64,000 bases of DNA, taken from Congzhengia sp. (GTDB lineage Bacteria; Bacillota; Clostridia; UBA1381; UBA9506). A program made the position numbers and the translations under genes. Numbering within the stretch: position 1 is the stretch's first letter; every line of letters begins with the position of its first letter. This document shows positions 3,930-38,926 of the stretch, one piece after another. The stretch spans positions 28,546 to 92,545 of the forward strand of contig JAZNSC010000008.1 in assembly GCA_045591015.1 (NCBI GenBank), in the 5' to 3' direction. The notes under the pieces were generated by a model. That model did no database searches, had not been told where the DNA came from, and saw nothing but the letters and a program-made list of their open reading frames with translations.

Positions 3930-5934
3930 GGTAGAAATAGACGGCTTTGGAAAACTGAATAATCGCGAGTTTGTTTTTGCCGACGGAGTAAATCTTATCT
4001 ACGGCGAAAACGAAAGCGGAAAAAGCACACTGTGTGAGTTTTTGCTTTCAGCATTTTACGGGCTTCCCACCGAAACAAAAAAAGACATAATAGATATGCC
4101 CACTCGCCAAAAGTACCGTCCCTGGAATACGGACGCTTTCGGCGGCAGGGTGTATTTTACCGACGATAGCGGCAAAAATTACGTAATCGAAAAGAGTTTT
4201 AAAACCACTCCCAGAAGTGACAAATCAGTTCTTCGTGATGCTGCCACCTGGGAAGAAATCGATAGCGGAGAAAATCTGGGAGAGAGAATTTTTGGACTTT
4301 CCCGCAAGGCTTTTTTAAAGACCTTATACGTAAGAAGCCTCGGCGCCGACAGTTTAAAATCCGACGACGGCGAAATTATGTCGAGACTATCAAACCTTGA
4401 GACAGGCGGAGACGAGGACATTTCCTATTCTAAAATCATAAACGCTTTGGAAAAGGAAATCTTCCACCTTAAAACCAAAACCGGCAGAGGCGGAAAAATA
4501 ACCGAATTGGAAGATAAAATAAATGCACTAAAGCAAGAACTTTCACTGTCACAAATGACTTATAGCGCCCTTTTGTCAGAGGAAAAAAGAGCACAAGAAC
4601 TAAAAGCAATTTCCGAACAAAAGGAAAAAGAGGCAAAGTTAAAGGATGCAAAATACAACCTTGCCTTAATGCACGAAAAATACGAAAATAGCAAAAAAAT
4701 CAAAGAAACGAAGCAAGCAATCGAAGAAAGAATAAAATCTGCAAAAGAAAAACTAAATGAAACAAACGACAAACTCCAAAATCTTGACACAGAAGATGAT
4801 GTCAAGGTTTCACCTGATGAAATCAGCCGTGCAAGAGCACTAGAAACTAAAAAACTTCTGGCAGAAGAAAAACTGCAAAGCATAAACTCGCAAAAGTCAT
4901 CATCTGTAAATGTAAGCGCTTTTGCCTGGCTATTACTTTCAGTAGCGGGCATTGTGGCTATAATTTTAAAATGGTTTGTTTTGGGCGGTGCGCTTTTAGT
5001 TTTGGGAGTTGGTTTGTTCTTTGCTTTCTTCAATAAAGGCAAAAACAAAAATCACGAAATCCTAAATTCCGCCCAAAAGGAATTAGACGGAATAAATGAT
5101 GAACTATCTGCCATTTTTAAACGCTACGGAGTTTCGGTGTCCGACGAATTATCGGCACTTTTTATGAATTCCAAAGGCAAGGAAGAAAAACGTGCGGAGC
5201 TCACCCGATTGATTAAGGATTACGAAACAGAAATCGAAGCCCTGATAAAAAGCATTCCCCAAGAGAGTACGGAGGAATTTTCCGATGAGGTAAAGAACTA
5301 CTCAGGCGAAAGTTCTGATGAAATTTACCAAAATATCAAAGCATTAAGAGAAGAAAGCATTGCACTGAATGAAGAGGCTGCTCAAATCTCAGTAAGACTT
5401 GCAAGAGAAACTGCCGAAATAAGAAAAGAAGCAGACATCACAGCGGACCTGCAAATGGTTACCGAAGAAGCGGAAAGTTTAAAGAAAAGACACGCATCAT
5501 TAACCAAAGCAGCAGAGTGGTTAGCTCGTGCTCACAGTGAAATCAAAAACAACTTTGCCCCCAAACTAAACCAAAAGGCATCGGAGTTTTTGGCGTATTT
5601 GACTGCTGAAAAGTACCAGGACGTAAGGGCGACGGACGCTTTCGGTATAAACTTAAAAAATTCAACAGGCGAAATAGTAGAAGCAGAATATATGAGCCGT
5701 GGAACTTATGACTTAATGTATTTAGCGCTTCGCTTTGCGGCTATGAGTGTCTTAACAGAGGGGAAAATCCCGCCCGTGATTTTGGACGATGCTTTTTCAC
5801 AACTGGACGACACAAGGCTGAAAGCCGCCCTGGGTTTAATAAAGGAAAGCCCCGAATTTTCGCAGGTGTTGCTTTTTACCTGTCACGAAAATTACAAAAC
5901 AATATCTGATGATTTTAATGTAGTCGAGCTGTAA
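3916..5934 (+). CDS. SbcC/Rad50-like AAA ATPase with long coiled coil and two central TM helices (YhaN-type)
   Basis: Walker A 'GENESGKST' at the N-terminus, K/E-rich coiled-coil stretches, and C-terminal 'VILDDAFSQLDD' Walker B/D-loop. Hydrophobic stretch 'FAWLLLSVAGIVAIILKWFVLGGALLVLGVGLFFAFF' encoded at about nt 4915..5030. Confidence 0.75.
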   Translation: MRIDKVEIDGFGKLNNREFVFADGVNLIYGENESGKSTLCEFLLSAFYGLPTETKKDIIDMPTRQKYRPWNTDAFGGRVYFTDDSGKNYVIEKSFKTTPRSDKSVLRDAATWEEIDSGENLGERIFGLSRKAFLKTLYVRSLGADSLKSDDGEIMSRLSNLETGGDEDISYSKIINALEKEIFHLKTKTGRGGKITELEDKINALKQELSLSQMTYSALLSEEKRAQELKAISEQKEKEAKLKDAKYNLALMHEKYENSKKIKETKQAIEERIKSAKEKLNETNDKLQNLDTEDDVKVSPDEISRARALETKKLLAEEKLQSINSQKSSSVNVSAFAWLLLSVAGIVAIILKWFVLGGALLVLGVGLFFAFFNKGKNKNHEILNSAQKELDGINDELSAIFKRYGVSVSDELSALFMNSKGKEEKRAELTRLIKDYETEIEALIKSIPQESTEEFSDEVKNYSGESSDEIYQNIKALREESIALNEEAAQISVRLARETAEIRKEADITADLQMVTEEAESLKKRHASLTKAAEWLARAHSEIKNNFAPKLNQKASEFLAYLTAEKYQDVRATDAFGINLKNSTGEIVEAEYMSRGTYDLMYLALRFAAMSVLTEGKIPPVILDDAFSQLDDTRLKAALGLIKESPEFSQVLLFTCHENYKTISDDFNVVEL

Positions 5935-5940
5935 AAATGC

Positions 5941-5969
5941 TTGCAATAGGGATTTTACTGTGGTATAAT
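5941..5969 (+). promoter_or_regulatory. sigma-A type promoter for tyrS (TTGCAA-17 nt-TATAAT with TG extension)
   Basis: TTGCAA at 5941..5946, 17-nt spacer ending in TGG, TATAAT at 5964..5969. Only about 30 nt of leader precede the RBS. Confidence 0.6.
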
Positions 5970-6004
5970 TTATAGATAATGCGAACAACAAAGGAGAAAA
6001 ATAA

Positions 6005-7225
6005 ATGAAAAACGTTTTTGACACCTTAAAAGAGCGTGGTTTAATCGCGCAGACAACACACGAAGAAGAAATAAGAGAACTTCTCGGCAAAGAGAAAGTA
6101 ACTTTTTATATTGGTTTTGACCCCACTGCAGATAGCCTCCACGTAGGCCACTTCTTGCAGATGGTAGTTATGCGTCACATGCAGGATGCAGGCCATCGCC
6201 CCATTGCTTTGGTGGGCGGCGGCACAGGTATGATTGGCGACCCGTCAGGCAGAACAGATATGCGCCAGATGATGACAGTAGAAACAATCAACCACAACTG
6301 CGAATGCTTCAAAAAACAGCTTTCCTGTATTATTGATTTTGCTGATGACAAGGCTATTATGGTAAATAATGCCGACTGGTTAAGAGAATTAAACTACATC
6401 GAATTCTTGCGTGAGATTGGCTCATGCTTCTCTGTAAACGAAATGCTCCGAGCAAAATGCTTCCAGACAAGACTTGAAAAAGGTCTTTCTTTCCTTGAAT
6501 TCAACTATATGCTTATGCAGAGCTATGACTTCTTGGAATTAAACCAGAGATATGGTTGCGTAATGGAGCTTGGCGGTGACGACCAGTGGAGTAACATCTT
6601 AGGCGGTATCGACCTTTGTCGCAGAAAGGCAAATAAGCAGGTTTATGGTATGACCTTTACACTTCTTACCACATCAGACGGCAAGAAAATGGGTAAAACC
6701 GCAAAAGGCGCTCTCTGGCTTGACCCCGAAAAAGTTTCTCCCTACGAGTTCTACCAGTATTGGAGAAATGTAGACGATGCAGACGTAGTTCGCCTTATTA
6801 AGATGATTACATTCGTTCCCATGGAAGAAATTTATGAAATGGAAAAATGGGAAGGCGCAGAGCTTAATAAAGCAAAAGTTCGCCTTGCTTATGAGGTTAC
6901 AAAGCTCGTTCACGGCGAAGAAGAAGCAAACAAAGCAAAAGCCACAGCAGAGGGAATCTTTGCAGGAGGCGCATCAGGTGACATGCCCACAACAGAGCTT
7001 GAAGCAGCAAATGTAGCAGAGGAAACACAACTTCTCGACCTGATGGTTACAGCAAAGCTTATCCCCTCAAAAGGCGAGGGCAGACGCTTAATCCAGCAGG
7101 GCGGCGTATCTGTTGACGATGTAAAAATCACAGAACCCAACTACACAGTTAAAAAAGAAGATTTATTAAACGGAATAGTTATCAAAAAAGGTAAGAAAGT
7201 ATTCCACAAAGTAATTGCAAAATAA
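6005..7225 (+). CDS. tyrS: tyrosine--tRNA ligase
   Basis: HIGH motif 'SLHVGHF', KMSKS-type 'KKMGKT', and a C-terminal S4-like domain '[16 protein letters not shown]'. Confidence 0.95.
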
Positions 7226-7246: not shown

Positions 7247-8518
7247 ATGAAATTAGATACAAAATGTATTCACGCGGGCTATACCCCTAAAAACGGCGAG
7301 CCCAGACAGATGCCTATTTATCAGAGTACAACATTCAAATACGACACAAGCGAAGAAATGGGAAAACTCTTTGACTTAGAAGCATCAGGTTATTTCTATA
7401 CAAGACTTCAGAACCCTACCAATGATTATGTAGCGGCGCGTATTGCAGCTTTAGAGGGTGGTACTGCTGCCATGCTCACATCATCAGGTCAGGCGGCAAA
7501 CTTCTTTGCAGTGTTTAACATTGCATCCTGCGGTGACCACGTTGTGTCATCTTCTGCTGTCTATGGCGGTACATTCAATTTGTTTGCCGTTACAATGAAG
7601 AGAATGGGCATTGAGTTTACATTTGTATCTCCCGATGCAACAGAAGAAGAACTGCAAGCGGCAGTAAAGCCCAACACAAAAGCATTCTTCGGTGAAACTA
7701 TCGCAAATCCTGCATTAAATGTTTTAGATATCGAAAAATTCGCACGCGTTGCTCATAAAAACGGCGTGCCGTTAATCATCGACAACACATTCCCCACACC
7801 TATAAACTGCAGACCTATTGAGTGGGGAGCGGACATTGTTACACATTCTACAACAAAATACATCGACGGACACGCATCATCAGTAGGTGGTTGTATCGTG
7901 GATTCGGGTAAATTTGACTGGACAAAATACCCCGAAAAATTCCCCGGACTTTGCACACCTGACGATAGTTACCACGGTGTAACATATACCGAGCGCTTTG
8001 GCCTTGAGGGTGCATTTATCACAAAGGCAACGGCACAGTTGATGCGTGATTTTGGTGCTATTCAGTCACCTCAGCACGCATACTACATCAATTTAGGATT
8101 AGAGAGCTTACCTCTTCGTATGAAGCGCCACTGCGAAAATGCACAGAAAGTTGCAGAATACTTGAGCAAACACGAAAACATCTCCTGGGTAAGTTATTCA
8201 GGTCTTCCCGGTGACAAATACTACGACCTTGCACAGAAATATATGCCCAACGGCGGTTGCGGTGTTGTAAGTTTTGGCGTAAAAGGCGGAAGAGCAGCAG
8301 CAGAGGCCTTTATGAAGAAATTAAAGCTTGCATCTATCGAAACTCACGTTGCGGACTCTAAGACCTGTTGCTTGCATCCTGCAAATGCTACACATCGTCA
8401 GATGAACGATGCAGAGCTTGAGGCTTGCGGTATCACACCTGATTTGGTGAGATTTTCTTGCGGCTTAGAAGACGCAGAGGACATCATCAAAGATTTAGAA
8501 CAGGCACTCAAAAACTAA
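7247..8518 (+). CDS. metY: O-acetylhomoserine aminocarboxypropyltransferase (sulfhydrylase), PLP-dependent
   Basis: Cys/Met-metabolism PLP family. PLP-lysine region 'HSTTKYIDGH'. N-terminus 'KCIHAGY...PIYQSTTF'. Confidence 0.9.
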   Translation: MKLDTKCIHAGYTPKNGEPRQMPIYQSTTFKYDTSEEMGKLFDLEASGYFYTRLQNPTNDYVAARIAALEGGTAAMLTSSGQAANFFAVFNIASCGDHVVSSSAVYGGTFNLFAVTMKRMGIEFTFVSPDATEEELQAAVKPNTKAFFGETIANPALNVLDIEKFARVAHKNGVPLIIDNTFPTPINCRPIEWGADIVTHSTTKYIDGHASSVGGCIVDSGKFDWTKYPEKFPGLCTPDDSYHGVTYTERFGLEGAFITKATAQLMRDFGAIQSPQHAYYINLGLESLPLRMKRHCENAQKVAEYLSKHENISWVSYSGLPGDKYYDLAQKYMPNGGCGVVSFGVKGGRAAAEAFMKKLKLASIETHVADSKTCCLHPANATHRQMNDAELEACGITPDLVRFSCGLEDAEDIIKDLEQALKN

Positions 8519-9454: not shown

Positions 9455-9495
9455 ATTTTATTAAATAAAAAAACTAAGGTATGGGAGAGAACATT

Positions 9496-10602
9496 ATGAG
9501 TGACAGAGTTTTAAAAGTAGGCGTTGTAGGATTAAGACGCGGACGCGACATTGTAAACAGTATCGTTGGCGAACCCAATATGCGCCTTTATGCAATTTGC
9601 GACGCTGATGAAGAAAGATTGGAAGACGCTAAAAAACACTTCGAAGGAAAAGGCGTAGAGGACCTTCAGTGCTTTACATCTTACGAGGAATTTTTAAAGT
9701 CTGATGTAGAGGCTGTAGTAGTAGCATCAGGCGTTGACCGTCACGTTGCTATGTCAATTCAGGCAATGGACGCAGGCAAACACGTTTTAAGTGAAATCCC
9801 TGTAGTAAATACAATAGAAGAAGCAAAAATCCTAAAAGATGCAGTAAAGAGCCACCCCGAACTTAAATACTTCGCAGGCGAAAACTGCTGCTTCTGGAGA
9901 TTTGTAGACGAATGGAAAAAACTCATCGAAAAAGGCTACGTTGGCGACCCTGTATACATTGAGGGTGATTATCTTCACCACACATATACAGAAAAACCCG
10001 GTCCTTTGAGCTTAAATCCCGACGGAACACTTAACTGGAGAGCAGACTTAAATGCTATTCAGTATTTAACCCACGAACTCGGTCCTATTCTTTATATGTT
10101 AGGCGATGACAGAGTTGTAAGCGTATGCGGCTTTGCTCCCGGCTTTGAAACTGTTCCATGGAAGCAGGGCAGAGGTCAGTCCAACGAAGTAGCAATGTTT
10201 AGAACCGCCAAAGGCGCACTTATCAAAATCTTCATTGGTTTTGGTGTTCATTGCGGCTTTGACCATAACTTTGTTGTTTACGGTTCAAAAGGCACAATTG
10301 AAACAGACAGAAGAGAAATGGTAGTAAACGCTCACTCATACGGAAGATTCCACGATATTAAGGACATCAGTCCTGACAAAATCGAGCTTCCTTACACCAC
10401 ACAGTACCCCGGTGAAAAGGACGACGGCCACGGCGGCGCTGATACACAGATGATGAAAGCATTTGCAAAATGTATTATAGAAGACACAAAACCTGCCGTT
10501 GATATTGATATGGGCATCCAGATGTCCATTGCAGGAATTTATGCTCACGAATCAGCCATGAATGGCGGCGTTCCCATAGAAATTCCCAGTTTTGACGACT
10601 AA
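9496..10602 (+). CDS. Gfo/Idh/MocA-family NAD(P)-dependent oxidoreductase, copy 1
   Basis: Rossmann N-terminus 'LKVGVVGLRRGRD'. ATG 9496 (GGGAGAG RBS) aligns with the start of the downstream paralog; ATG 9481 is the alternative start. Confidence 0.8.
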   Translation: MSDRVLKVGVVGLRRGRDIVNSIVGEPNMRLYAICDADEERLEDAKKHFEGKGVEDLQCFTSYEEFLKSDVEAVVVASGVDRHVAMSIQAMDAGKHVLSEIPVVNTIEEAKILKDAVKSHPELKYFAGENCCFWRFVDEWKKLIEKGYVGDPVYIEGDYLHHTYTEKPGPLSLNPDGTLNWRADLNAIQYLTHELGPILYMLGDDRVVSVCGFAPGFETVPWKQGRGQSNEVAMFRTAKGALIKIFIGFGVHCGFDHNFVVYGSKGTIETDRREMVVNAHSYGRFHDIKDISPDKIELPYTTQYPGEKDDGHGGADTQMMKAFAKCIIEDTKPAVDIDMGIQMSIAGIYAHESAMNGGVPIEIPSFDD

Positions 10603-10778: not shown

Positions 10779-11882
10779 ATGAGCGACAGAATTTTAAAAG
10801 TCGGCGTAGTAGGCTTACAGCGCGGACTCAACATTATCAGCAGTATTGTTGGTGAGCCTAACGCTTGCGTATATGCAATTTGCGACGCAGATGAAAAAAG
10901 ACTCGAAGAAGGCAGAAAAAAATTAGAAGAAAAAGGTGCAAAGGACATTAAGTGCTTTACATCTTACGAAGAATTTTTAGCATCAGATGTTGAGGCGGTA
11001 GTAGTAGCAACAGGCGTTGCTCTTCACGTTCCTATGTCAATTCAGGCATTGGATGCAGGCAAGCACGTTTTAAGTGAAATTCCCGTTGTAAATGACATCG
11101 AAGAAGCAAAAATCTTAAAGAATGCAGTTAGAAATCATCCCAACCAGAAATATTTCGCAGGTGAAAACTGCTGCTTCTGGAGATTCGTAGACGAATGGAG
11201 AAAGCTCGTTGAAAAAGGATATGTAGGCAAGCCCGTTCTTGTTGAAGGCGAATACTTACATCACGAAGCAGAAGGAAATACAACACCTCCTGATTATTAT
11301 TACAATCCCGACGGCACAATCGGTTGGAGAGCAGACCTCCATGCTATTCAGTACTTAACACACGAACTCGGTCCTATTCTTTATATGTTGGACGATACAG
11401 TTGTAAGCGTATGCGGCTTCAAACCTGATTTTGAAACAGTAGTTTACAAAGAGGGCAGAGGCGCATCAAACGAATTAGCCGTATTTAAAACAAAGAAGGG
11501 TGCTATTATCAAAATCTTCATCGGTTTTGGTGTAGACGTTGGCTTTGACCACAACTTCATTCTCTATGGTTCAGAGGGCTCACTCGAAACTGACAGAAGA
11601 ACAATGGTAGTTGATGCACATTCATACGGAAGATTCTACCATATGAAAGATATCAAGTCCGGTAGGATTGAACTTCCCTGGACAACAAAATACCCCGGCG
11701 AAAAAGACGACGGACACGGTGGCGCTGATACACAGATGATGAAAGCATTTATTAAATGTATCATCGAAGATACAAAGCCCGCTGTTGATGTTGATATGGG
11801 TATCCAGATGTCAATCGCAGGACTTTACGCTCACGAATCAGCTGTAAAGGGCGGTATTCCGATAGAAATCCCCGAATTTTAA
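10779..11882 (+). CDS. Gfo/Idh/MocA-family NAD(P)-dependent oxidoreductase, copy 2 (tandem paralog)
   Basis: Collinear with copy 1 over its full length (by eye roughly three quarters identical). Long identical blocks include 'KYFAGENCCFWRFVDEW' and 'GHGGADTQMMKAF'. Confidence 0.8.
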   Translation: MSDRILKVGVVGLQRGLNIISSIVGEPNACVYAICDADEKRLEEGRKKLEEKGAKDIKCFTSYEEFLASDVEAVVVATGVALHVPMSIQALDAGKHVLSEIPVVNDIEEAKILKNAVRNHPNQKYFAGENCCFWRFVDEWRKLVEKGYVGKPVLVEGEYLHHEAEGNTTPPDYYYNPDGTIGWRADLHAIQYLTHELGPILYMLDDTVVSVCGFKPDFETVVYKEGRGASNELAVFKTKKGAIIKIFIGFGVDVGFDHNFILYGSEGSLETDRRTMVVDAHSYGRFYHMKDIKSGRIELPWTTKYPGEKDDGHGGADTQMMKAFIKCIIEDTKPAVDVDMGIQMSIAGLYAHESAVKGGIPIEIPEF

Positions 11883-11901
11883 TTAATAATACATACACAA
11901 A

Positions 11902-11939
11902 AACAGACTATAGAGTGACTCTATGGTCTGTTTTTTTTA
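11902..11939 (+). terminator. rho-independent terminator
   Basis: 14-bp stem AACAGACTATAGAG/CTCTATGGTCTGTT (one G-U pair), 3-nt loop, T8 tail. Confidence 0.85.
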
Positions 11940-11987: not shown

Positions 11988-12016
11988 TTGACTTTAGTAG
12001 GTATGTGTGATATACT
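11988..12016 (+). promoter_or_regulatory. sigma-A type promoter of the PqqD/ABC/peptide/kinase operon
   Basis: TTGACT 11988..11993, exactly 17-nt spacer, TATACT 12011..12016. Confidence 0.65.
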
Positions 12017-12070
12017 CTACATAGTATGATAGATGTCGGGGGGTATCTATGCCTATTTTTGGGGGAAACC

Positions 12071-12337
12071 ATGAAAATTAAAGACGGATTTATGTTAAAA
12101 AAAATATTAGATGATTATATAGTTGTCCCTACCGGCGATAATATAGTAGACTTTGCTGTGGCGGTATCTTTAAACGAAACGGGGGCTTTCCTTTGGAGCC
12201 AACTGGAAACAGAAAAAGACATCGAAACTTTAGCAAATGCCTTAGCCGAAGAATACGACGTTACCTACGATGTTGTCATAGATGATGTGGTTGAATTTGC
12301 TGCACTCTTAAAAGCTCACAGCTTTTTAGCAGAATAA
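12071..12337 (+). CDS. PqqD-family protein (RiPP recognition element / peptide chaperone)
   Basis: 88 aa from ATG 12071 (GGGGGAAA RBS). The pattern 'GFMLKKILDDYIVVP...LNETGAFLWSQLE...IETLANALAEEYDV...DVVEFAALLKAHSFL' matches the small winged-helix PqqD/RRE family layout. Confidence 0.7.
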   Translation: MKIKDGFMLKKILDDYIVVPTGDNIVDFAVAVSLNETGAFLWSQLETEKDIETLANALAEEYDVTYDVVIDDVVEFAALLKAHSFLAE

Positions 12338-12362
12338 GGAAAAAAACGAAAGGCGGACCTGA

Positions 12363-14060
12363 ATGAAAGAGAAAAAATCCGAAACAGGCAAATGGATTTT
12401 CAAACGAATCCGCCCATTTATACCATATATCGTATTTCTTATAGTGGCAGTTATTGCCGTTGCTTACATTAACGTACAGTTCTCACTTGTGTCAAAGAGT
12501 CTTATTGACATTGCGACCAAGCAGACAGAAGGAAGCCTGATGCATAGCGCAATTTTACTTGTTGTGTTGCTTGTACTACAGCTTCTTTTGCAGGTTATAT
12601 ATACACGAGTCCACGTAACAGTAAGCGGAAAACTCGCTATGTCAATCCGCACAGAGCTTTTTTATAAACTCTTGGGCAAGGATTATAGCCGTGTATCACA
12701 GATTCACTCAGGTGAAGTGCTAAACCGCCTCACCAGTGATGTAAGCTTACTGTCAGAAAAAGTTACAGAGATAATTCCTAATGTATTTGCTTTGTTTTCA
12801 ACTGTAGTGTTCAGTTTTGTAGCGCTTTACAGTTTAGACAGAACCTTTGCATTGTTTTGCTTGTGCTGTGGTCCTATTATTTTGATTGCGGCATACATAT
12901 ACAAGAAGAAAATCAAAACCCTTCATTTAAAATGTCGCGAAAGTGACGGCAAGGTACGTTCCCACTTACAGGAAACGATACAAAACTTTATAGTTATCAA
13001 GGCTTTCAAAAAAGAAAACCTTATGAGAAAAAATTCTCAAAAACTCCAACAGGACAATTACCGATTAAATATCAAGCGTACTACAGTTGGTATTATGTCA
13101 AACATACTGTTCTTCCTTGCGATGACGGTTGTTTATTATGCGGCGCTTGCCTGGGGTGTATATAAACTCAGTGTCGGCGCTATCACATTTGGTACTGTTA
13201 CAGCAATGCTTGGACTTGTAGGTCAGCTGCAGTCGCCATTCCGTGAAATTGCATCGGTGCTTCCTCAATGCTATATGGTGCTTGCATCAACCGACAGACT
13301 AATAGAACTTGAGCAAATCCCTGACGATGAAGTAAAAGAAAAGTTCACTCAAGACGACGTATCAAACTTCGAAAAAATTGTTTTTTCCGATGTTGACTTT
13401 TCCTATGGTGCGGTTGACGTTTTAAAGAATATTGATTTCACTGTAAATAAAGGCGAATTCGTTGCTATTTGCGGTGTATCGGGAGCAGGAAAGAGTACTC
13501 TTTCAAAAATTATGCTCTCCGTAATTAAGCCTGATGGCGGAAATGCTTATGTAAAAGCAGGAAGCAAGACAGCAGAATTTTCTGCAGAAACAAGAAAGCT
13601 GTTTTCCTATGTTCCTCAAGGAAATCTGATACTGTCAGGCACAATCAGGGACAACGTTACATTCTGTGATGAAAACCCCGATGAAGAAAAGATAATTAGT
13701 GCGTGCACAGCCGCACAGATTATAGATGATATAAACAAAATGCCCGAGGGCTTTGACACTATCTTGGGCGAAAAAGGTCACGGCATGTCCGAAGGACAGA
13801 TTCAGCGTCTGGCTATAGCGCGAGCGCTTTACCACGATGCACCTGTACTTTTGTTGGACGAAGCCACATCGTCACTTGATATTGCTACAGAGGACAGACT
13901 GTTATCAGCTATCAAATCAATGACCGATAAAACCTGCATCATCATTTCCCACAGAAAAGAAGTTATGCAGGCTTGTGACAAAACTTACATATTGCAGAAT
14001 TGCTCACTTAACGAGCTTATAATATCCCCCCCGGATTTATCAATCCAATCCATGATTTAA
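12363..14060 (+). CDS. ABC exporter half-transporter (N-terminal 6-TM domain + C-terminal NBD), no peptidase domain
   Basis: The TM region starts at residue ~20. Walker A 'GVSGAGKST', signature 'MSEGQIQRLA', Walker B 'VLLLDEATSSLD'. Confidence 0.9.
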   Translation: MKEKKSETGKWIFKRIRPFIPYIVFLIVAVIAVAYINVQFSLVSKSLIDIATKQTEGSLMHSAILLVVLLVLQLLLQVIYTRVHVTVSGKLAMSIRTELFYKLLGKDYSRVSQIHSGEVLNRLTSDVSLLSEKVTEIIPNVFALFSTVVFSFVALYSLDRTFALFCLCCGPIILIAAYIYKKKIKTLHLKCRESDGKVRSHLQETIQNFIVIKAFKKENLMRKNSQKLQQDNYRLNIKRTTVGIMSNILFFLAMTVVYYAALAWGVYKLSVGAITFGTVTAMLGLVGQLQSPFREIASVLPQCYMVLASTDRLIELEQIPDDEVKEKFTQDDVSNFEKIVFSDVDFSYGAVDVLKNIDFTVNKGEFVAICGVSGAGKSTLSKIMLSVIKPDGGNAYVKAGSKTAEFSAETRKLFSYVPQGNLILSGTIRDNVTFCDENPDEEKIISACTAAQIIDDINKMPEGFDTILGEKGHGMSEGQIQRLAIARALYHDAPVLLLDEATSSLDIATEDRLLSAIKSMTDKTCIIISHRKEVMQACDKTYILQNCSLNELIISPPDLSIQSMI

Positions 14061-14074
14061 AGGAGGAAGAAAAA

Positions 14075-15007
14075 ATGGCAAAATTTGGGATATTCAAGAA
14101 AGTTGCCGCTTTAGCTATGGCAGTTGCATTAGTTTTATGCTTTGCTGTTAGCGCTGGTGCTGTTACAGTTACAACATCAACATCATACCTCGATGGTAAC
14201 GAAGGCGATATCTTGGTAGAAGTTACAGTTGCTGGCGAAGAACTCGTAGGCAAAAGCGTAACATACTATGCTTATGACAGCAGCAATAACCCTGTTTACA
14301 TCGATCAGTATGAAGATACTACTGCAGATGGCGCATACTTTGAATTCGCAACAGATGATGCGAACCTCAATACTGGAGTAAAGGTTGGCTACACAGGTGC
14401 AAGTGATGCTACACCCTCACAGATTGACGCATATACAGTAACATGGGGCGATCAGGTTGTTTACATTCCTAACAATGCAGATGTTGCTACAGTAAAATTC
14501 GCAACAACAGCTACATCAGTAGAAGCAATCAGTGCTACAGGCGCAACGGTTGTAGATAAAAACATCGCAGCTGGCAGTGGTTATCTCACAGTTATCTTGG
14601 GAGATATCACAGGCAATGTTACATTAAACGTAACAGTAGGTGCTGAAGTTGTTGTAGAAACTATCGACGCAGCGTTCCTTATTTCTAACGGTTCTGACGA
14701 CCATCACCAATTAGCAGATACAGCTGCTGGCGACAGAAAGTTAACAGTTGTTGGTAGAGTATTAAACGCTGATGAATTTGGTGTCGTTTTAGCGGAAAAA
14801 GACGGTATCGCTACAGGTGAAAAATACCGTGCAATCGCAACACAGGGCGATTTACAGGGTAAAACATCTGAAGGTTACTATGCTATCCAGTTCATCGACG
14901 ATTCTGAAACAGACAAGTGGCTTGATGCAACAAAATCATACGATGTAGCTGCATACGGTGATAATGAAGTAGCAGCACCTAAGACAGTTACAGCTAGAAA
15001 CCAGTAA
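14075..15007 (+). CDS. secreted acidic T/V/A-rich protein of unknown function (signal peptide)
   Basis: AAAGGAGGAAG RBS. Signal peptide 'MAKFGIFKKVAALAMAVALVLCFAVSAGA'. Beta-rich composition; no SLH, LPXTG or lipobox. Confidence 0.7.
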   Translation: MAKFGIFKKVAALAMAVALVLCFAVSAGAVTVTTSTSYLDGNEGDILVEVTVAGEELVGKSVTYYAYDSSNNPVYIDQYEDTTADGAYFEFATDDANLNTGVKVGYTGASDATPSQIDAYTVTWGDQVVYIPNNADVATVKFATTATSVEAISATGATVVDKNIAAGSGYLTVILGDITGNVTLNVTVGAEVVVETIDAAFLISNGSDDHHQLADTAAGDRKLTVVGRVLNADEFGVVLAEKDGIATGEKYRAIATQGDLQGKTSEGYYAIQFIDDSETDKWLDATKSYDVAAYGDNEVAAPKTVTARNQ

Positions 15008-15022
15008 GGAGGTAGTGATATA

Positions 15023-15214
15023 ATGAAGAAGTATGTAAAACCGAGCATTAATGTAATCGAATTACAGCTCAAAGAAAATATCGCTGGCCTTCCTACAACA
15101 GTTTACAGAGGTTCAGCGAGCAGCAAAAACAGTGCTTTGTACAACATCGCACTTTCAACCGAAAAGTCAGGTCTTGAAGAACACAAGTACGGCGAAGACG
15201 GTTGGGTTAGCTAA
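15023..15214 (+). CDS. 63-aa candidate RiPP precursor peptide (lasso-like YxxPxI leader motif, C-terminal Ser)
   Basis: Consensus AAGGAGG SD 9-10 nt upstream of the ATG. Sequence: 'MKKYVKPSINVIELQLKENIAGLPTTVYRGSASSKNSALYNIALSTEKSGLEEHKYGEDGWVS'. It sits between operon genes with 15-nt and 13-nt gaps. Confidence 0.6.
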   Translation: MKKYVKPSINVIELQLKENIAGLPTTVYRGSASSKNSALYNIALSTEKSGLEEHKYGEDGWVS

Positions 15215-15227
15215 TTTCTTGAATATT

Positions 15228-16100
15228 ATGATTTATCGTATTGCAAACAGTTTAATTGAAATTAAAGGTTTACAAAACGAATATTTAGAGCGTAGATTAA
15301 GTGCTTACCTGTCAACAGGTAAGCACTCTGCGCCTGATATCACTGTAACCTTTAGAGAAAACACAGAGATTGAAGTACCGACGGGACAGGAATTTCGTCG
15401 GCTTGATGCGTGGTACTGGATTAAAAGAGACGACGGAGGGTACTCTGCTGTCAAACAAAATTCCAAGTACCGTTTTAATTTAATAAGAATGGATTTTGAC
15501 CAGTTCTGTACAAAAATCGACATCGAGTACCTCAATGTTGATGATTTTTACAGTGATATGACTACAGAACGATTGTTGCACTTGATTTTGGGAGAGGCAT
15601 TTGCTTTTTGCCAGACGGTAAGAGGAAATACAGTTCTTCATTCGGCAGCGGCTTCCTACAAAGGTCAGGCAATGCTGTTTTCGGCGCCGTCCGAAACAGG
15701 AAAATCCACTCACACATCCCTTTGGAAGAAGTTCTATCCTGATGACGTGGTATTGTTTAACGATGACACACCTGTCATTACTGAAATTGACAACGAGTTC
15801 TACGCTTGCGGGACACCCTGGAGCGGAAAGACTGAAATAAATGAAAACGAAATTTTCCCATTAAAAGCTATAGTATTTTTAAAGCAGGGAAAGGAAAATT
15901 CCATAAAAAAATTATCTACAATCGAAGCTGTAGTTAAGCTTTTAAACGAAACCAGAAAGCCCGTTTTTGAGCATTTGATGGATTCGCATATGGAAATAAT
16001 CAAAAAAATAATCGAAAAAACACCTATCTATGAATTGACCTGCAATATTTCAAAAGAAGCAGTTGATTTAGTAAAAGAAACAATATTTAGTGAAGAATAA
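15228..16100 (+). CDS. HprK-related P-loop kinase-like protein (RiPP precursor kinase candidate)
   Basis: 290 aa from ATG 15228. Core 'NTVLHSAAASYKGQAMLFSAPSETGKSTHTSLW' resembles the HPr kinase C-terminal domain/Walker A region found in lasso-cluster kinases. The longer ORF from 15132 would overlap the peptide gene. Confidence 0.6.
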   Translation: MIYRIANSLIEIKGLQNEYLERRLSAYLSTGKHSAPDITVTFRENTEIEVPTGQEFRRLDAWYWIKRDDGGYSAVKQNSKYRFNLIRMDFDQFCTKIDIEYLNVDDFYSDMTTERLLHLILGEAFAFCQTVRGNTVLHSAAASYKGQAMLFSAPSETGKSTHTSLWKKFYPDDVVLFNDDTPVITEIDNEFYACGTPWSGKTEINENEIFPLKAIVFLKQGKENSIKKLSTIEAVVKLLNETRKPVFEHLMDSHMEIIKKIIEKTPIYELTCNISKEAVDLVKETIFSEE

Positions 16101-16133
16101 ACCTTTATGGTTGTGGTAAAGGAGTACAATAAA

Positions 16134-17753
16134 ATGAAAAAAATATTAGCAATGATTTTGTGTATAAGTATGATCTTATCATTGGGCTTTTGTGTAAGCG
16201 CTGCAGGATTTTCGGATTTAGCGGCAGACCACTGGGCATACAATGATATCACAACATTGGTAAATGAAGGCACCATCAACGGTTACACAGATGGAACATT
16301 CAAACCTTCAAAAACAGTAACACGTGCCGAATTTGTAAAAATGATTGGCAAGTGGGACAAAAAATCAGATGTTGAGTTTTCAGACTTATCTCCCGAGCAT
16401 TGGGCTTATGAGTACCTTATGTGGTCAGGTTTAGAGCCTGCAGGAATATCGATTATGCCTGATGTAGAGATAAAGAGATCTGATGTTATAAACCTTATCT
16501 GGAAGAGAAACGGCTCTCCCAAAAATGATAGCGCACCCTCTGTAATTACCAATCAGGGCAAGAATAAAGACGCAGTATCATGGGCATATACAATAGGACT
16601 TATGCAGGGCAACGATGGCTTAAATCTTCGCCTTGACAGCTCATTAACACGTGCAGAAGCTGCAACTCTTATTGTTCGTTCAAGAAAACTCGTAGCAGAA
16701 AACAATAGTGTAAACTTTGTAGATACAGTAAGTGATGAATTGTTGAAATTCACATACGAGGGACTTAACTTAATCGCTGACCCCTATAGACCTAATAAAG
16801 AACTCACATATACAGAATTGGCAAGAATGTCATATAGATTTGGTGCAAACGGTTCAAATGTAGGTTTTGTAGGCGATGACCGTGCAGATGAGCCCATTGA
16901 CCACGTTTATGCACACGAAATGCATATTATGACCTCCAAGGTATGGGGTGACGATATGTACACAATGGAAATGGCAGACAAGCAAGCCACCGTTCAGGAT
17001 GCTATAGGTGCCATTATGCACGGCTTTACAAGACGTGGCACAGCCCCCAGTGATATGGGCAAAATGAACGAATATTATTCTGACTGTAAAGATGTAAACA
17101 AAGGCTTTGAAAACATTTACCTTACATATGCAAACAAAAAAGGCATCAAACTCTTTGCAGGCAGTGAACTCGGCGCAGACGAACCTATTACAGTAAAAAA
17201 ATACACAGCGCTTTTGGTTCAGTTCAATGAAATCGTAGGTCTTGGCGTAAAATACGAAAATGGCGAAATCCAAAACGCAAAAATATGTGCAAGTATTGAT
17301 ACATTACCCGGTGACTACAAAGCATATAAAACAACAATAGATGAAATTCCTATGGAAATCTATAATATGAAAGCAGAGCATATTTCTGCAAAATCAAGAT
17401 TCAACTTCCTCAATCAGTGTGCTTTTGTATTTAACTCATATTTGGGCACTGCAAACAGTCACGCAAAGCAAAACACAGGCTACACAATGAACTATACCTA
17501 CTATCCGTCAGTTTCTTACTTTAACGATAGCGGTAACGTTGTATTTGTAACCAAAATGTCAGTTAACCTACCCGGTGAAAATGTAACATCAATTTCTGTT
17601 GATGAGCTTTTCAAAGACGTTATCACAGAACCCACAGGGAAAACCGTTAAACCGAAGCAAGATTTCTTTGTAGTGTTTGAAACAAACGGAGCATTCATGG
17701 ATGTTTCGCTCGCATACGATGAAGCTCACGTAAAAGCAGTAGTTATTCCTTAA
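16134..17753 (+). CDS. SLH-domain cell-surface protein with unknown C-terminal domain
   Basis: AAGGAG RBS before ATG 16134, followed by a signal peptide. SLH repeats include 'FSDLAADHWAYNDITTLVNEGTINGYTDGTFKPSKTVTRAEF', 'FSDLSPEHWAYEYL' and 'DAVSWAYTIGLMQGNDGLNLRLDSSLTRAEA'. Confidence 0.85.
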   Translation: MKKILAMILCISMILSLGFCVSAAGFSDLAADHWAYNDITTLVNEGTINGYTDGTFKPSKTVTRAEFVKMIGKWDKKSDVEFSDLSPEHWAYEYLMWSGLEPAGISIMPDVEIKRSDVINLIWKRNGSPKNDSAPSVITNQGKNKDAVSWAYTIGLMQGNDGLNLRLDSSLTRAEAATLIVRSRKLVAENNSVNFVDTVSDELLKFTYEGLNLIADPYRPNKELTYTELARMSYRFGANGSNVGFVGDDRADEPIDHVYAHEMHIMTSKVWGDDMYTMEMADKQATVQDAIGAIMHGFTRRGTAPSDMGKMNEYYSDCKDVNKGFENIYLTYANKKGIKLFAGSELGADEPITVKKYTALLVQFNEIVGLGVKYENGEIQNAKICASIDTLPGDYKAYKTTIDEIPMEIYNMKAEHISAKSRFNFLNQCAFVFNSYLGTANSHAKQNTGYTMNYTYYPSVSYFNDSGNVVFVTKMSVNLPGENVTSISVDELFKDVITEPTGKTVKPKQDFFVVFETNGAFMDVSLAYDEAHVKAVVIP

Positions 17754-17782: not shown

Positions 17783-18514
17783 TTGGATAAACAATTTAAC
17801 TTAACAGACCTTTTAAAATTATATTTAAGACATTGGTGGAGAATAGTGCTGGTAATGGTTATATGCGGACTTTTGTCAGGCTTATACACAGCGTTTTTCG
17901 TTCATCCCACATATCAGTCTGCAGGCTCTTTGTATGCTGAAAATACATCAGAACCTGTTGCAGGTACTAATAATGTAAACCTAAGCGAAGTTATGGTACG
18001 TCAGGAGCTTGTAAAAACTTATGCTGAAGTTCTTTCCAGCAATGTTTTCTTGAAGAAAGTAGCAGACAAGGTAAACCTCGGTTATACATACCGCGATATA
18101 CTGAATATGCTTACAATGACAGACAAGAACGAAACCGAAATTCTTGTTATATGTGTTGAATCATACGATCCCCAGCACGCTTATGTTATTGCACAGACGA
18201 TAATAGACTTGGCATCTGAGCAAATCACAACAATCGTAAAAGGCGGTAACGTAAAGGTGCTCGATGAGCCCGAATACCCGATAGCACCCTCATCACCTAA
18301 TCTGGTGAAGAATATCGCTGCCGGACTTTTGGGCGGTTTGATACTTTGTCTTGCGGTAATCTATCTTATAGAGATGCTTGACAATAAAATCAAAGATTCC
18401 GAAATGTTATCAAAGACCTTTAAATATCCGATTTTGGGCGAGGTTCCATACATTGCCTCATCAGCAAACGGAAAAAAAGACGCAAAACAGAAACAAACTG
18501 CACTGAAGAATTAA
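17783..18514 (+). CDS. Wzz/CpsC/YwqC-type polysaccharide chain-length determinant (BY-kinase modulator) protein
   Basis: TTG start with AAGGAGA RBS. N-terminal TM 'WWRIVLVMVICGLLSGLYTAFFV' followed by 'PTYQS', and a C-terminal TM 'IAAGLLGGLILCLAVIYLIE'. Confidence 0.8.
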   Translation: MDKQFNLTDLLKLYLRHWWRIVLVMVICGLLSGLYTAFFVHPTYQSAGSLYAENTSEPVAGTNNVNLSEVMVRQELVKTYAEVLSSNVFLKKVADKVNLGYTYRDILNMLTMTDKNETEILVICVESYDPQHAYVIAQTIIDLASEQITTIVKGGNVKVLDEPEYPIAPSSPNLVKNIAAGLLGGLILCLAVIYLIEMLDNKIKDSEMLSKTFKYPILGEVPYIASSANGKKDAKQKQTALKN

Positions 18515-18530
18515 ATACAATCATAACAAA

Positions 18531-18558
18531 TAAGCCGCGACCCTCCGCGGCTTATTTA
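18531..18558 (+). terminator. rho-independent terminator
   Basis: Stem TAAGCCGCG/CGCGGCTTA followed by TTTAT. Confidence 0.7.
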
Positions 18559-18576
18559 TCTATAAAGGAGAAATAA

Positions 18577-19044
18577 ATGATAAAAAAACTTTTGCTTTAT
18601 ATAGCTATAATATTTGTTTCTGTACAAATATTCAATGCCTCATCACAGGTTGCCACAGAGTCTGCTGAAATGAGTGGCAAAATCACAAAAAAAGTGGTTG
18701 ACGTGATTGCCAAAGTGAAAAAAGTGGAACCGGAGAAAAAAGAAGATTTGTTTAATTCTGTACATCTTGTAATAAGGAAAACGGCGCACTTTGCAGAATA
18801 CGCATTGCTTACGCTGTTGGTGTTTTTGCTTACAAAATGCTATAAGCTCAAAAATTTCTGGTGCTTTTTAATAAGCTTGGGATACTGTATCATTTTTGCT
18901 GCAAGTGATGAGATCCACCAGCTTTTTGTATCGGGGCGAAGCGGAGAAATAAGAGACGTCATACTCGATTTCTGTGGCGGAATCACGGGAAGTGTTTTTG
19001 GATTTTTAGCCTGCAAAATTACCTCCGGAAAAAAAGCGCAATAA
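18577..19044 (+). CDS. VanZ-family membrane protein
   Basis: Four TM segments. 'RKTAHFAEYALLT' and 'DEIHQLFVSGRSGEIRDVILDFCG' are typical VanZ-like motifs. Confidence 0.8.
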   Translation: MIKKLLLYIAIIFVSVQIFNASSQVATESAEMSGKITKKVVDVIAKVKKVEPEKKEDLFNSVHLVIRKTAHFAEYALLTLLVFLLTKCYKLKNFWCFLISLGYCIIFAASDEIHQLFVSGRSGEIRDVILDFCGGITGSVFGFLACKITSGKKAQ

Positions 19045-19149: not shown

Positions 19150-20535
19150 ATGGACGAATTCAAAAATAACATAAGCGATGAAAATAAAAATCACGAAAAT
19201 GAATATACAGATTATAAATTCTATGAGGCTGAAGCAGAACCGGCAATGAGCGGTACTATTTCCGAAGAAAACGCTCTTTCCATATATCGCCCAAAGAAAA
19301 AGAAAAACATATTCAAAAGCCCTATATTTGCAGCGATTATAAGCGCTGTTGTTACCAGTGCGATATGCTTTGGTATATTTACGGGTTTGAGCGGTGTTAT
19401 CGGTTCTACTCCAAAGAAAACCTTTCCGAAAAGTGAGCTTACAATAGCAAAAGGCAAAGATGATAACACAAAAACTGTAGTAAGCACTCCCACAGGCGAG
19501 AAGATGGCGGTGCCGGATATCTACGATAAAGTTTCTCCTTCTGTGGTAAGTATTATTTGCACGTCGCACGGAAGCGCACTCCAATTGGGCGCAAAGAGCA
19601 GTGGTTCAGGTGTAATACTCACAAAAGACGGATACATTGTAACCAATAACCACGTAATCGAAGGAGCAGCTATAATAACAGTTAAAACAATCGCAGGTCA
19701 GAGCCTTACAGCTCAGCTTGTTGGAACAGACGAAAGAACAGACCTTGCAGTTTTAAAGGTTGAAAGCGACAAAGACCTTCCCTTTGCTGAACTTGGTGAT
19801 TCATCGTCACTTCGTGTAGGGGATATGGCGATAGCTATCGGTAATCCCTTGCAGGCAGAGCTTGTTAGCACACTTACGGTTGGTTATATCAGTGCGATAA
19901 ACAGAACAATGGTAATAGACCAAAGACAGATGACCATGCTCCAGACAGATGCGGCTATCAACCCCGGCAACTCCGGCGGCGCACTGATAAATGAATACGG
20001 TCAGGTAATAGGCATTACAACAGCAAAGCACACAGGTTACGATATCGAAGGACTTGGCTTTGCTATTCCAAGTAACGAAGCAATACCGGTAATCGAGTCC
20101 ATAATTGCAAATGGCTACGTAACCGGAAGACCGCTTATCGGTATCACAGGTATAGACGTAACGGAAGCTATAGCAGAAGCAAATGACTTGCCTGTAGGCG
20201 TATTTGTTGATAAAGTCGTAAAAGGAAGCGCTGCAGACTTGGGCGGCATCAAAAAAGGTGACGTTATAGTAAAATTTGACGGCGAAAACGTCAAGAGTGT
20301 AGATGAAATAAACGCTATCCGCGATGACCACAAGATTGGCGACAAAATTGATGTTGTAGTTTCACGAAACGGCAAAAAAGTTAAATGCACAATAGAATTA
20401 CAGGAAGAAAAACCCGGCGAGCAGCAAGACGCTCAAAACGAACAGTACGATCAGGGTCAGCAGGACGGTTCAGATGGAGGAAGATATCCATCATACGGAT
20501 TCCCCTCTGATTTCTTCTCAATCTTCGGTTGGTAA
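19150..20535 (+). CDS. htrA: HtrA/DegP-family serine protease with N-terminal TM anchor and PDZ domain
   Basis: Catalytic triad contexts 'VTNNHVI', 'TDLAVLKV', 'GNSGGALIN'. PDZ domain 'GVFVDKVVKGSAADLGGIKKGDVIVKFDG'. Confidence 0.9.
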   Translation: MDEFKNNISDENKNHENEYTDYKFYEAEAEPAMSGTISEENALSIYRPKKKKNIFKSPIFAAIISAVVTSAICFGIFTGLSGVIGSTPKKTFPKSELTIAKGKDDNTKTVVSTPTGEKMAVPDIYDKVSPSVVSIICTSHGSALQLGAKSSGSGVILTKDGYIVTNNHVIEGAAIITVKTIAGQSLTAQLVGTDERTDLAVLKVESDKDLPFAELGDSSSLRVGDMAIAIGNPLQAELVSTLTVGYISAINRTMVIDQRQMTMLQTDAAINPGNSGGALINEYGQVIGITTAKHTGYDIEGLGFAIPSNEAIPVIESIIANGYVTGRPLIGITGIDVTEAIAEANDLPVGVFVDKVVKGSAADLGGIKKGDVIVKFDGENVKSVDEINAIRDDHKIGDKIDVVVSRNGKKVKCTIELQEEKPGEQQDAQNEQYDQGQQDGSDGGRYPSYGFPSDFFSIFGW

Positions 20536-38882: not shown

Positions 38883-38926
38883 ATTAGCGGGGATATTATA
38901 AAACAATGATGAAAGTAGGTAAACTT

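Follow-up and report, generated by a model that had tools for sequence, protein, structure and literature searches.

What product is made by an operon that encodes a precursor peptide, a recognition element, a kinase-like enzyme and an exporter, with no lasso-forming enzymes? The question is raised by a locus in a 64,000-nucleotide stretch of the genome of Congzhengia sp. (contig JAZNSC010000008.1, positions 28,546 to 92,545; the whole 64-kb stretch is called the window here). In this operon a promoter is followed by genes, all on the same strand, for a recognition element (RRE) of the kind found in pathways for peptides that are made on the ribosome and modified after translation (RiPPs), an ABC exporter, a 310-aa protein, a 63-aa peptide, a kinase-like protein and an SLH-domain protein. 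The first-pass annotation of this DNA read them as a non-lasso system of RRE, kinase, exporter and precursor, and could not assign the architecture to a described RiPP class. We find that the locus does have a described, distant relative in the linear polyphosphorylated peptide (LPP) family (PMC13381572), and that it is probably a reduced Clostridial version of an LPP-type operon for a linear phosphopeptide.

LPPs were first described in Bacilli (Popov et al., Nat Commun May 2026; PMC13381572). Their core genes encode the precursor LppA (YxxPxVLxHQxIxFETxxS), the HprK-like kinase LppK, the RRE LppB, the SpI/S26 peptidase LppS, the MsbA-like pump LppD and the NTP-transferase LppN, and LppS is the feature by which the family was discovered (PMC13381572). 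In a heterologous host LppK adds several phosphates to core Ser3 of LppA and the product is linear; leader removal by LppS depends on LppB (PMC13381572). The clusters are patchily distributed in Bacilli, often lie inside capsule loci and are often found beside paeninodin-type lasso clusters (PMC13381572). VanZ is listed among the domains that co-occur with them (PMC13381572 Suppl. Data 2). That work examined one Paenibacillus cluster in a heterologous host, and its analysis was centred on Bacilli. The supplementary table does include a few Clostridial SpI proteins (from Dehalobacter, Anaerocolumna and an uncultured Ruminococcus), which fall in minor network clusters. Because the table gives their RRE as 'others' and their LPP fields as 'ND', the Clostridial branch had been glimpsed and left unclassified. 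For direct comparison we used a Paenibacillus locus that holds both lpp and lasso genes (L081); other related loci compared with the window locus also carry L-numbers (L002, L015, L023 and so on), which are given where a name is needed.

The kinase-like protein and the RRE are nearer to LPP than to lasso counterparts

The kinase-like protein (290 aa, 15228..16100, + strand) is a predicted P-loop enzyme of the ScmC/LppK type with an HprK/PEPCK (phosphoenolpyruvate carboxykinase) fold, as judged from its PF27840 assignment, a structural model and conserved motifs. Its start was placed at 15228 and not at the GTG at 15132 because homologues begin MxYRIA. A search of a large protein collection returned 729 relatives, and among the matches listed the precomputed PF27840 (ScmC) assignment was found on the window protein and on 119 of 120 homologues. 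PF27840 is also present on Paenibacillus LppK, whereas the lasso kinase PbaK belongs to PF07475 (Hpr_kinase_C), a domain that a Pfam scan did not detect in the window protein. The local Pfam-A library, which lacks PF27840, and a PDB sequence search returned nothing useful for this protein. NCBIfam gave only sub-threshold matches to ScmC (1e-7) and HprK_rel_A, and membership of the HPr-rel-A system was rejected on that score.

An AlphaFold2 model built from 21 homologues reached a pLDDT (predicted local distance difference test) of 92.3, and the top Foldseek matches of this model were ATP-PEPCK and HprK/P with a probability of 1.0. Residues H138, G158-K-S-T-H162, N178-D-D180 and P197-W-S-G-K201 are invariant in the family. 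In HprK/P enzymes a His precedes the P-loop and an acidic pair comes after it, and the window motifs match this arrangement. The earlier proposal of an HPr-kinase-like protein was thus right about the fold; the PF07475 and PadeK/ThcoK type that it named did not hold, and PF27840 takes its place. In BLASTP the window protein matched LppK at E=1e-8 vs PbaK at E=3e-4. An hhalign comparison with the Clostridial kinase alignment gave 97.5% (E=8e-12) for LppK and 88.7% (E=2.5e-6) for PbaK, and a hidden Markov model (HMM) of 79 Clostridial kinases scored LppK at 6e-25 and PbaK at 2e-14. By all of these comparisons the window kinase is nearer to LppK than to the lasso kinase. Most of the loci L026-L080 encode a shorter kinase-like protein (~235 aa, equivalent to residues ~110-290 of the window protein). 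These short-kinase loci have an adjacent RRE, some with and some without SpI; a leader-type open reading frame (ORF) was not detected in them.

The first gene of the operon (12071..12337, + strand, 88 aa) encodes a discrete, LppB-like RRE of the PqqD family. It matched PF05402, as had been anticipated, with E=2.3e-14, above the cut-off. The top match in a PDB sequence search was the LppB crystal structure (9x8z_B), at E=0.022 only, and BLASTP against LppB gave 30% identity with E=3e-7. An HMM of the Clostridial RREs scored LppB at 3.7e-12 and the lasso protein PbaB1 at 8.4e-10. LppB residues N33 and D70 fix the Tyr-type leader (PMC13381572), and in a pairwise alignment N35 and D72 of the window RRE fall opposite them.

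The weak NCBIfam scores of the window proteins include TIGR04249 (1.1e-7) and TIGR04248 (9e-3). These profiles belong to SynChlorMet, in which ScmC occurs with the PqqD-like ScmD and the radical SAM/SPASM proteins ScmE/F; there, as in the window locus, a P-loop protein of the ScmC family is paired with a small protein of the PqqD family. However, the scores were 31.5 bits against a cut-off of 125 for TIGR04249 and 16.2 against 100 for TIGR04248, and a Pfam scan found no radical SAM protein among the operon genes. With both scores far below the equivalog cut-offs and no radical SAM gene in the operon, SynChlorMet membership was rejected.

The exporter (565 aa, 12363..14060, + strand) is an MsbA-like, LppD-like half-transporter in which a transmembrane domain (ABC_membrane, 24-293) precedes a nucleotide-binding domain (ABC_tran, 354-503). 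It is 28% identical to Paenibacillus LppD over 444 aa (E=8e-62), and its best NCBIfam similarity is to MsbA. The Pfam scan detected only these two domains, with no C39 peptidase domain or N-terminal extension, in agreement with the first reading of this gene.

The precursor has an almost invariant N-terminus and a conserved terminal serine

The precursor gene (63 aa, 15023..15214, + strand) lies behind an AAGGAGG Shine-Dalgarno (SD) sequence. Its product carries Y4-x-x-P7-x-I9, E18-N-I-A21 and P24-T-T-V-Y-[KR]-G30, followed by a variable core that ends in Ser63. A GGAGG SD is conserved upstream of the peptide gene, and in the first 30 codons synonymous differences equalled or exceeded amino-acid-changing ones in 13 of 15 pairs. 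On these two grounds the ORF is a real gene.

Among 53 non-redundant homologues of the peptide, residues 1-30 (MKKYVKPSINVIELQLKENIAAVPTTVYKG) are almost invariant, and a motif of the ALSxxxSGL type recurs in the middle of the core. The emphasis that the first-pass annotation had placed on the terminal Ser was well founded: 43 of the 53 homologues end in Ser, and this position varies least among the last ten (entropy 1.0 bit vs 2.1-3.3). The conservation is not an artefact of the search, because the homologues were recruited by shared N-terminal words. A naive binomial P of 4e-28 for the terminal Ser ignores shared ancestry and is indicative only. Eight other homologues end in G[IL]S[IVA][LA], with Ser at -3; examples are P0210, P0213, P0229, P0230, P0236, P0237 and P0239. 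A peptide with this ending is encoded in L097 by an otherwise identical operon. In the wider Clostridial family the peptides end in a residue other than Ser.

The leader MKxYxKPxxEVIELxxxExIA, followed by a hypervariable tail, was found in small ORFs from 25 of 96 sources; there are one to three such ORFs, typically beside the kinase gene. For the ~70 loci without a leader-type ORF, clustering of small intergenic ORFs yielded no second precursor family, only out-of-frame fragments of conserved genes. The locus L015 of Ruminiclostridium cellobioparum subsp. termitidis CT1112 has precursors at 5839-6042, 7555-7725 and 7768-7899, with one leader type and very different cores, two of which contain Cys and one of which is rich in Gly, Trp and Phe (…GGFFWGGLGNWFGGFLGRGNRR).

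The window peptide has a YxxPx[I] motif and a variable tail; the HQ, FET and Ser(+3) elements of the LPP motif are absent. Alignment from the Tyr predicts cleavage after N19 with no Ser at +3, so the LppA site cannot simply be transferred to this peptide. The leader of the Paenibacillus lasso precursor PbaA (L081, 15444-15578; MKKEWLKPELEVLEV) is nearer to the Clostridial consensus KxYxKPxLEVxEL than the Bacilli LPP leader is. PbaA was weakly matched by the Clostridial leader HMM (E=0.32).

Lasso enzymes are absent from the window and from related loci

Absence was assessed by six-frame HMM and phmmer searches over the 64 kb and by Pfam scans of 36 ORFs. No Asn_synthase domain (lasso C) was found among the 36 window ORFs, and phmmer with PbaC found no match in six frames of the 64 kb. 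Transglut_core3 (lasso B2) was likewise not found in the 64 kb, and a PbaB2 search gave no match. These searches bear out the statement that C and B2 are encoded nowhere in the window. The pattern extends to relatives: lasso C and B2 within 5 kb of the kinase gene were found in 0 of the 52 related loci with 3.5 kb or more of flanking sequence on each side, in line with the non-lasso character first proposed for the system. An Asn-synthase near L025 was considered as a lasso cyclase and not accepted; it has full GATase domains (283 bits) and lies ~5 kb from the RRE without a B2 partner. By these features it may be an ordinary AsnB, an ambiguous assignment in that PbaC also has GATase matches.

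The searches of the window were negative for two LPP genes as well. When all six frames of the 64 kb were searched with LppS and with an HMM of 39 Clostridial SpI sequences, no SpI/S26 leader peptidase was found, and no NTP_transf_5 (LppN-type) domain was found in the 64 kb.

With paeninodin-type lasso systems (PadeK/ThcoK/PbaK) the window locus shares a discrete RRE with a [Y/W]xxPxL leader, an HprK-fold kinase that would act on serine, a precursor ending in Ser and an exporter of the McjD/MsbA type. It differs from them in having neither C nor B2 and in a kinase of PF27840 and not PF07475. The leader has Tyr where theirs has Trp (WxxP), the RRE has Asn where theirs has Gly, and the post-leader region of ~40 residues offers no ring-forming geometry.

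Related loci are common in Clostridia, and one clade has lost the leader peptidase

A scan of one genome per species found a relative in at least 297 genomes, nearly all of them Clostridia and mostly metagenome-assembled genomes from gut or rumen. The closest, among the matches listed, were from Congzhengia sp., with 60-74% identity. A metagenome scan returned 0 relatives with a single-protein query and 14 loci with an alignment query.

Neighbouring genes were clustered for 80 loci and recounted by HMM on the 52 fully flanked loci. Around the kinase gene a PqqD/RRE gene was present in 38 of 52, usually directly downstream, and an MsbA-like ABC exporter in 22 of 52. A protein of ~155 aa with a GNSMxPL motif, which is an SpI-type, LppS-like peptidase, was found in 24 of 52; the HMM of this Clostridial peptidase matched LppS at 1.5e-25. 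NTP_transf_5, Wzz and VanZ were rarer near the kinase gene, and NTP_transf_5 occurred in a minority of loci, such as L015 (PF14907, 1e-52). The Herbivorax sp. ANBcel31 locus (L023) has the order peptide-kinase-RRE-SpI-ABC-NTP-transferase, which is the lppAKBSDN order. In cultured Ruminiclostridium cellobioparum (L015) all six gene types are present (NTP-transferase, RRE, kinase, SpI, ABC and precursor, the last in three copies), together with VanZ.

The window locus and the LPP clusters have in common a PF27840 kinase, an RRE with the Asn/Asp determinants of the Tyr motif and an MsbA-like exporter, without a macrolactam synthetase. Their precursors have a YxxPx[VLI] leader and a hypervariable tail, and Wzz and VanZ are neighbours of both. 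Related Clostridial loci outside the window clade carry the SpI-type peptidase and NTP_transf_5 as well, one of them in the same gene order. Other features set the window clade apart from LPPs. The Clostridial leader MKxYxKPxxEVIELxxxExIA differs from YxxPxVLxHQxIxFETxxS, and the proteins are 22-30% identical. The clade lacks LppS and LppN, has the extra secreted 310-aa and SLH genes in the order RRE-ABC-310-aa protein-peptide-kinase-SLH, has a conserved C-terminal Ser in its peptide and keeps a stable chromosomal position. These comparisons indicate that the Clostridial family is homologous, distantly, to the LPP clusters.

The window clade has the order RRE-ABC-310-aa protein-peptide-kinase-SLH-Wzz-(BY-kinase)-VanZ-HtrA. 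In all eight loci of this Congzhengia-like clade (the window, L002, L003, L085, L087 and L096-L098) the RRE and ABC genes are direct neighbours, with no SpI and no NTP-transferase present. In the next-closest loci of the same order (L004, L005, L009 and L024) SpI still lies between the RRE and ABC genes. As judged from this gene order, the Congzhengia-like clade has lost the S26/SpI leader peptidase, an enzyme whose presence in relatives the first-pass annotation had missed. HtrA (19150-20535) was considered as a substitute leader protease and set aside; it is conserved downstream in the clade, yet has no link to the peptide.

In the window and in L096-L098, whose flanks were annotated with Pfam, the operon occupies the same chromosomal place, downstream of TyrRS, Cys/Met-PLP and HTS and upstream of HtrA and TrkA. 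This shared position suggests that the operon is vertically inherited in the clade. In the window two tandem Gfo/Idh/MocA oxidoreductase paralogues (9481-10602 and 10779-11882), 75% identical to each other, separate the HTS gene from the operon. The syntenic spot in L096-L098 lacks them; there the RRE gene comes directly after HTS (in L097 after an extra MFS transporter gene), and by this comparison the pair looks like a lineage-specific insertion and duplication.

The operon is bounded upstream and probably runs on into envelope-type genes

The promoter and the six same-strand genes without an internal terminator, as first described, were confirmed. The sigma-70-type promoter TTGACT-17-TGaTATACT (11988..12016, + strand) is the top-scoring site of the region, with 10 of 12 matches and a TG before the -10 box. 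A TTGAC(T/A/T) -35 box and a -10 box of the TGnTAnAAT type or TATACT are found equally far upstream of the RRE gene in L002, L003, L085, L087 and L005. Because the boxes are positionally conserved in these five related loci, the promoter is not a chance match. The 5' boundary of the unit is set by the intrinsic terminator of the upstream Gfo/Idh/MocA gene (11899..11935, + strand), a 17-pair stem followed by a T-run. Between promoter and RRE start, the 5' untranslated region (12017-12070) contains a stretch tatgc[ct]...attt[tg]gg[ag]g, partly kept in L002, L003, L085 and L087, with the SD at its end. The RRE ORF can be extended N-terminally from an upstream ATG at 12026, but this extension is spurious.

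The intergenic gaps within the operon are 6-33 nt, and no convincing + strand terminator was found inside it, only two 5-bp stems that lack a T-run. A 29-nt gap, also free of a terminator, separates the SLH gene from the gene for a Wzz-type chain-length determinant (17783..18514, + strand; PF02706, E=1.8e-13), and the gene for a VanZ-like membrane protein (18577..19044, + strand; PF04892, E=3.4e-21) comes next. Given this short gap with no terminator, the transcription unit probably continues past the SLH gene into Wzz and VanZ. The six genes originally grouped as the operon thus stand, and the end that had been placed at the SLH gene does not; the run-on had been overlooked. In L001-L003 and L096-L098 a BY-kinase gene of the ParA/CbiA type (~236-250 aa) lies between Wzz and VanZ; it is missing from the window (18514-18577), where VanZ directly follows Wzz. 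Wzz is kept downstream in related loci and also flanks the Paenibacillus lpp cluster, and VanZ is found near Clostridial loci including L015 and L023. This link to Wzz and VanZ survives across classes, which makes a role in the envelope or in biofilms more plausible.

Two further operon genes would encode extracellular proteins. The 310-aa protein (14075..15007, + strand) is specific to the subclade and predicted to be secreted, its hydrophobic N-terminus being read as a signal peptide; it has no Pfam, NCBIfam or PDB match. Of the 52 fully flanked loci, 9 have its gene between the ABC and precursor genes, and the gene is present in every subclade locus listed or fetched (the window, L002-L005, L009, L024, L085, L087, L089, L093 and L096-L098). 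The SLH-domain protein (16107 or 16134 to 17753, + strand; SLH E=1.4e-17) is predicted to be anchored to the cell wall and has an uncharacterised C-terminal region of ~350 aa. A PDB search matched its SLH region only and gave no further functional lead. Throughout the subclade its gene directly follows the kinase gene, often overlapping it.

Farther along the window a 1339-aa ORF (38906-42925) has no Pfam match at E<=1e-5. Near it are genes for a second SLH protein (45340-47925) and, on the minus strand (42963-44633), for a protein in which the PG_binding_1 repeat occurs four times. Together these genes may be another cell-envelope group.

A proposed pathway and its alternatives

From the homology of the parts, the architecture, the conservation of the peptide and the absence of lasso enzymes we infer phosphorylation, its site, export and an envelope role as follows. 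The operon would be transcribed from the promoter at 11988. The 63-aa precursor would bind the discrete RRE through its Y4xxP7xI9 leader, with N35 and D72 acting as in the Tyr-type recognition of LppB. The RRE would then present the peptide to the ScmC/LppK-type P-loop kinase for ATP-dependent phosphorylation of serine, possibly several times. No macrolactam ring would be formed, linearity being a point on which the absence of a cyclase bears. The MsbA-like half-transporter would send this linear product out to the envelope, where it would act together with the secreted and SLH proteins encoded in the same unit and with the capsule-type Wzz and VanZ. Because the clade lost the RRE-dependent S26/SpI peptidase of its relatives, the leader would be either kept or cut by an unlinked protease. 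The first-pass guess of a linear phosphorylated peptide matches experiment on the homologous Paenibacillus lpp cluster (PMC13381572), and it probably holds for the window locus.

Lasso-associated HprK-like kinases act on a C-terminal Ser (PMC13381572). By this analogy Ser63 is the most likely phospho-acceptor, because peptides across the clade have kept a C-terminal Ser, which corresponds to the paeninodin-type site. The alternative is Ser31, which comes just after the invariant PTTVY[KR]G and would parallel LppA Ser3 in its place near the leader-core junction.

Several observations weigh against an LPP-type assignment. Homology to the sole characterised system is distant, with ~30% identity for the RRE and 22-29% for the kinase over ~120-150 residues. 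The full LPP leader consensus is absent, as is a Ser in the register of LppA Ser3. The leader peptidase and the NTP-transferase are both missing from the 64 kb, and no more than the 25 of 96 sources mentioned above have a detected leader-type precursor. Finally, the LPP authors placed Clostridial RREs in 'RRE others' (PMC13381572).

A doubtful reading, though one to be taken seriously, is that the Congzhengia-type operon is a separate class and not a degenerate LPP system. The ~63-aa peptide would retain its leader, be modified by the ScmC-type enzyme at its conserved C-terminal Ser, through phosphorylation or a phosphodiester link to a glycan, and be exported and built into the S-layer or capsule with the secreted and SLH proteins. 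If this reading is true, the locus would be housekeeping, vertically inherited RiPP machinery for cell-surface assembly and not a source of a diffusible natural product.

The RiPP parts may also be what they seem while the ScmC-type enzyme does something other than phosphorylate serine, such as adenylylation, formation of a phosphodiester link to a polysaccharide or carrier, or ATP-dependent ligation, with a product unlike LPPs. LppK is the sole member of PF27840 with demonstrated activity, which also counts against the LPP-type reading, and the window enzyme is only 22-29% identical to it. In LppK other residues stand opposite the family-invariant PWSGK and the H162 after the P-loop, the LppA Ser3 register is missing from the peptide, and the operon is tied to the envelope genes SLH, Wzz and VanZ. 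However, the preceding His, the P-loop and the acidic pair are placed as in HprK/P-type kinases and the fold agrees, while the conserved C-terminal Ser agrees, in residue type and in position, with the target of lasso-associated HprK-like kinases. Other chemistry is, on balance, unlikely.

We consider it quite improbable that the locus makes no peptide natural product at all and that the PqqD-like, ScmC-like and ABC proteins act on some other substrate in the envelope (for instance the 310-aa or the SLH protein, or an intermediate of the capsule), with the small ORF a regulator or bystander. The fixed chromosomal place between housekeeping and capsule-type genes, unlike that of the patchy Bacilli LPPs, the ~70 related loci without a recognisable precursor and the absent leader peptidase would fit such a role. 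Yet the small ORF carries the RRE-binding motif YxxPx[ILV] and the first 30 residues of the peptide are almost invariant in 51 sequences. In many divergent loci the ORF stands directly upstream of the kinase gene, and at times there are two or three of them whose tails are hypervariable, the hallmark of RiPP precursors; the homologous Paenibacillus proteins act on just such a peptide (PMC13381572).

A conventional lasso cluster split across the genome, with its cyclase and B2 elsewhere, would accommodate the resemblance of the leader to Bacillota lasso leaders (the weak PbaA match included), the Ser at the end of the peptide as in paeninodin-type precursors and the inspection of 64 kb of this genome; it is nonetheless highly improbable, given that C and B2 are absent from the window and from 52 of 52 fully flanked related loci, that relatives have an SpI-type leader peptidase in place of B2, that the kinase and RRE are nearer to LPP types, the RRE with Asn where the paeninodin type has Gly, and that after any Thr(-2) the sequence offers no suitable ring-start residue with Asp or Glu at core positions 7-9.

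Significance

The LPP-type reading, which we prefer, extends LPP-like systems to Clostridia. What is new, on the evidence of the comparisons above, is this extension, including a clade that has no leader peptidase and conserves the terminal Ser. Anaerobic Clostridia, those of gut and rumen among them, commonly carry homologous systems. The fuller versions in cultured Ruminiclostridium cellobioparum subsp. termitidis CT1112 and Herbivorax sp. ANBcel31 make tests feasible. The near-invariant 30-residue N-terminus, the conserved terminal Ser and the operon's fixed chromosomal position give testable hypotheses on the site at which the kinase acts and on the need for leader removal. The window clade is itself a natural experiment, in which the system runs without a leader peptidase and without an NTP-transferase.

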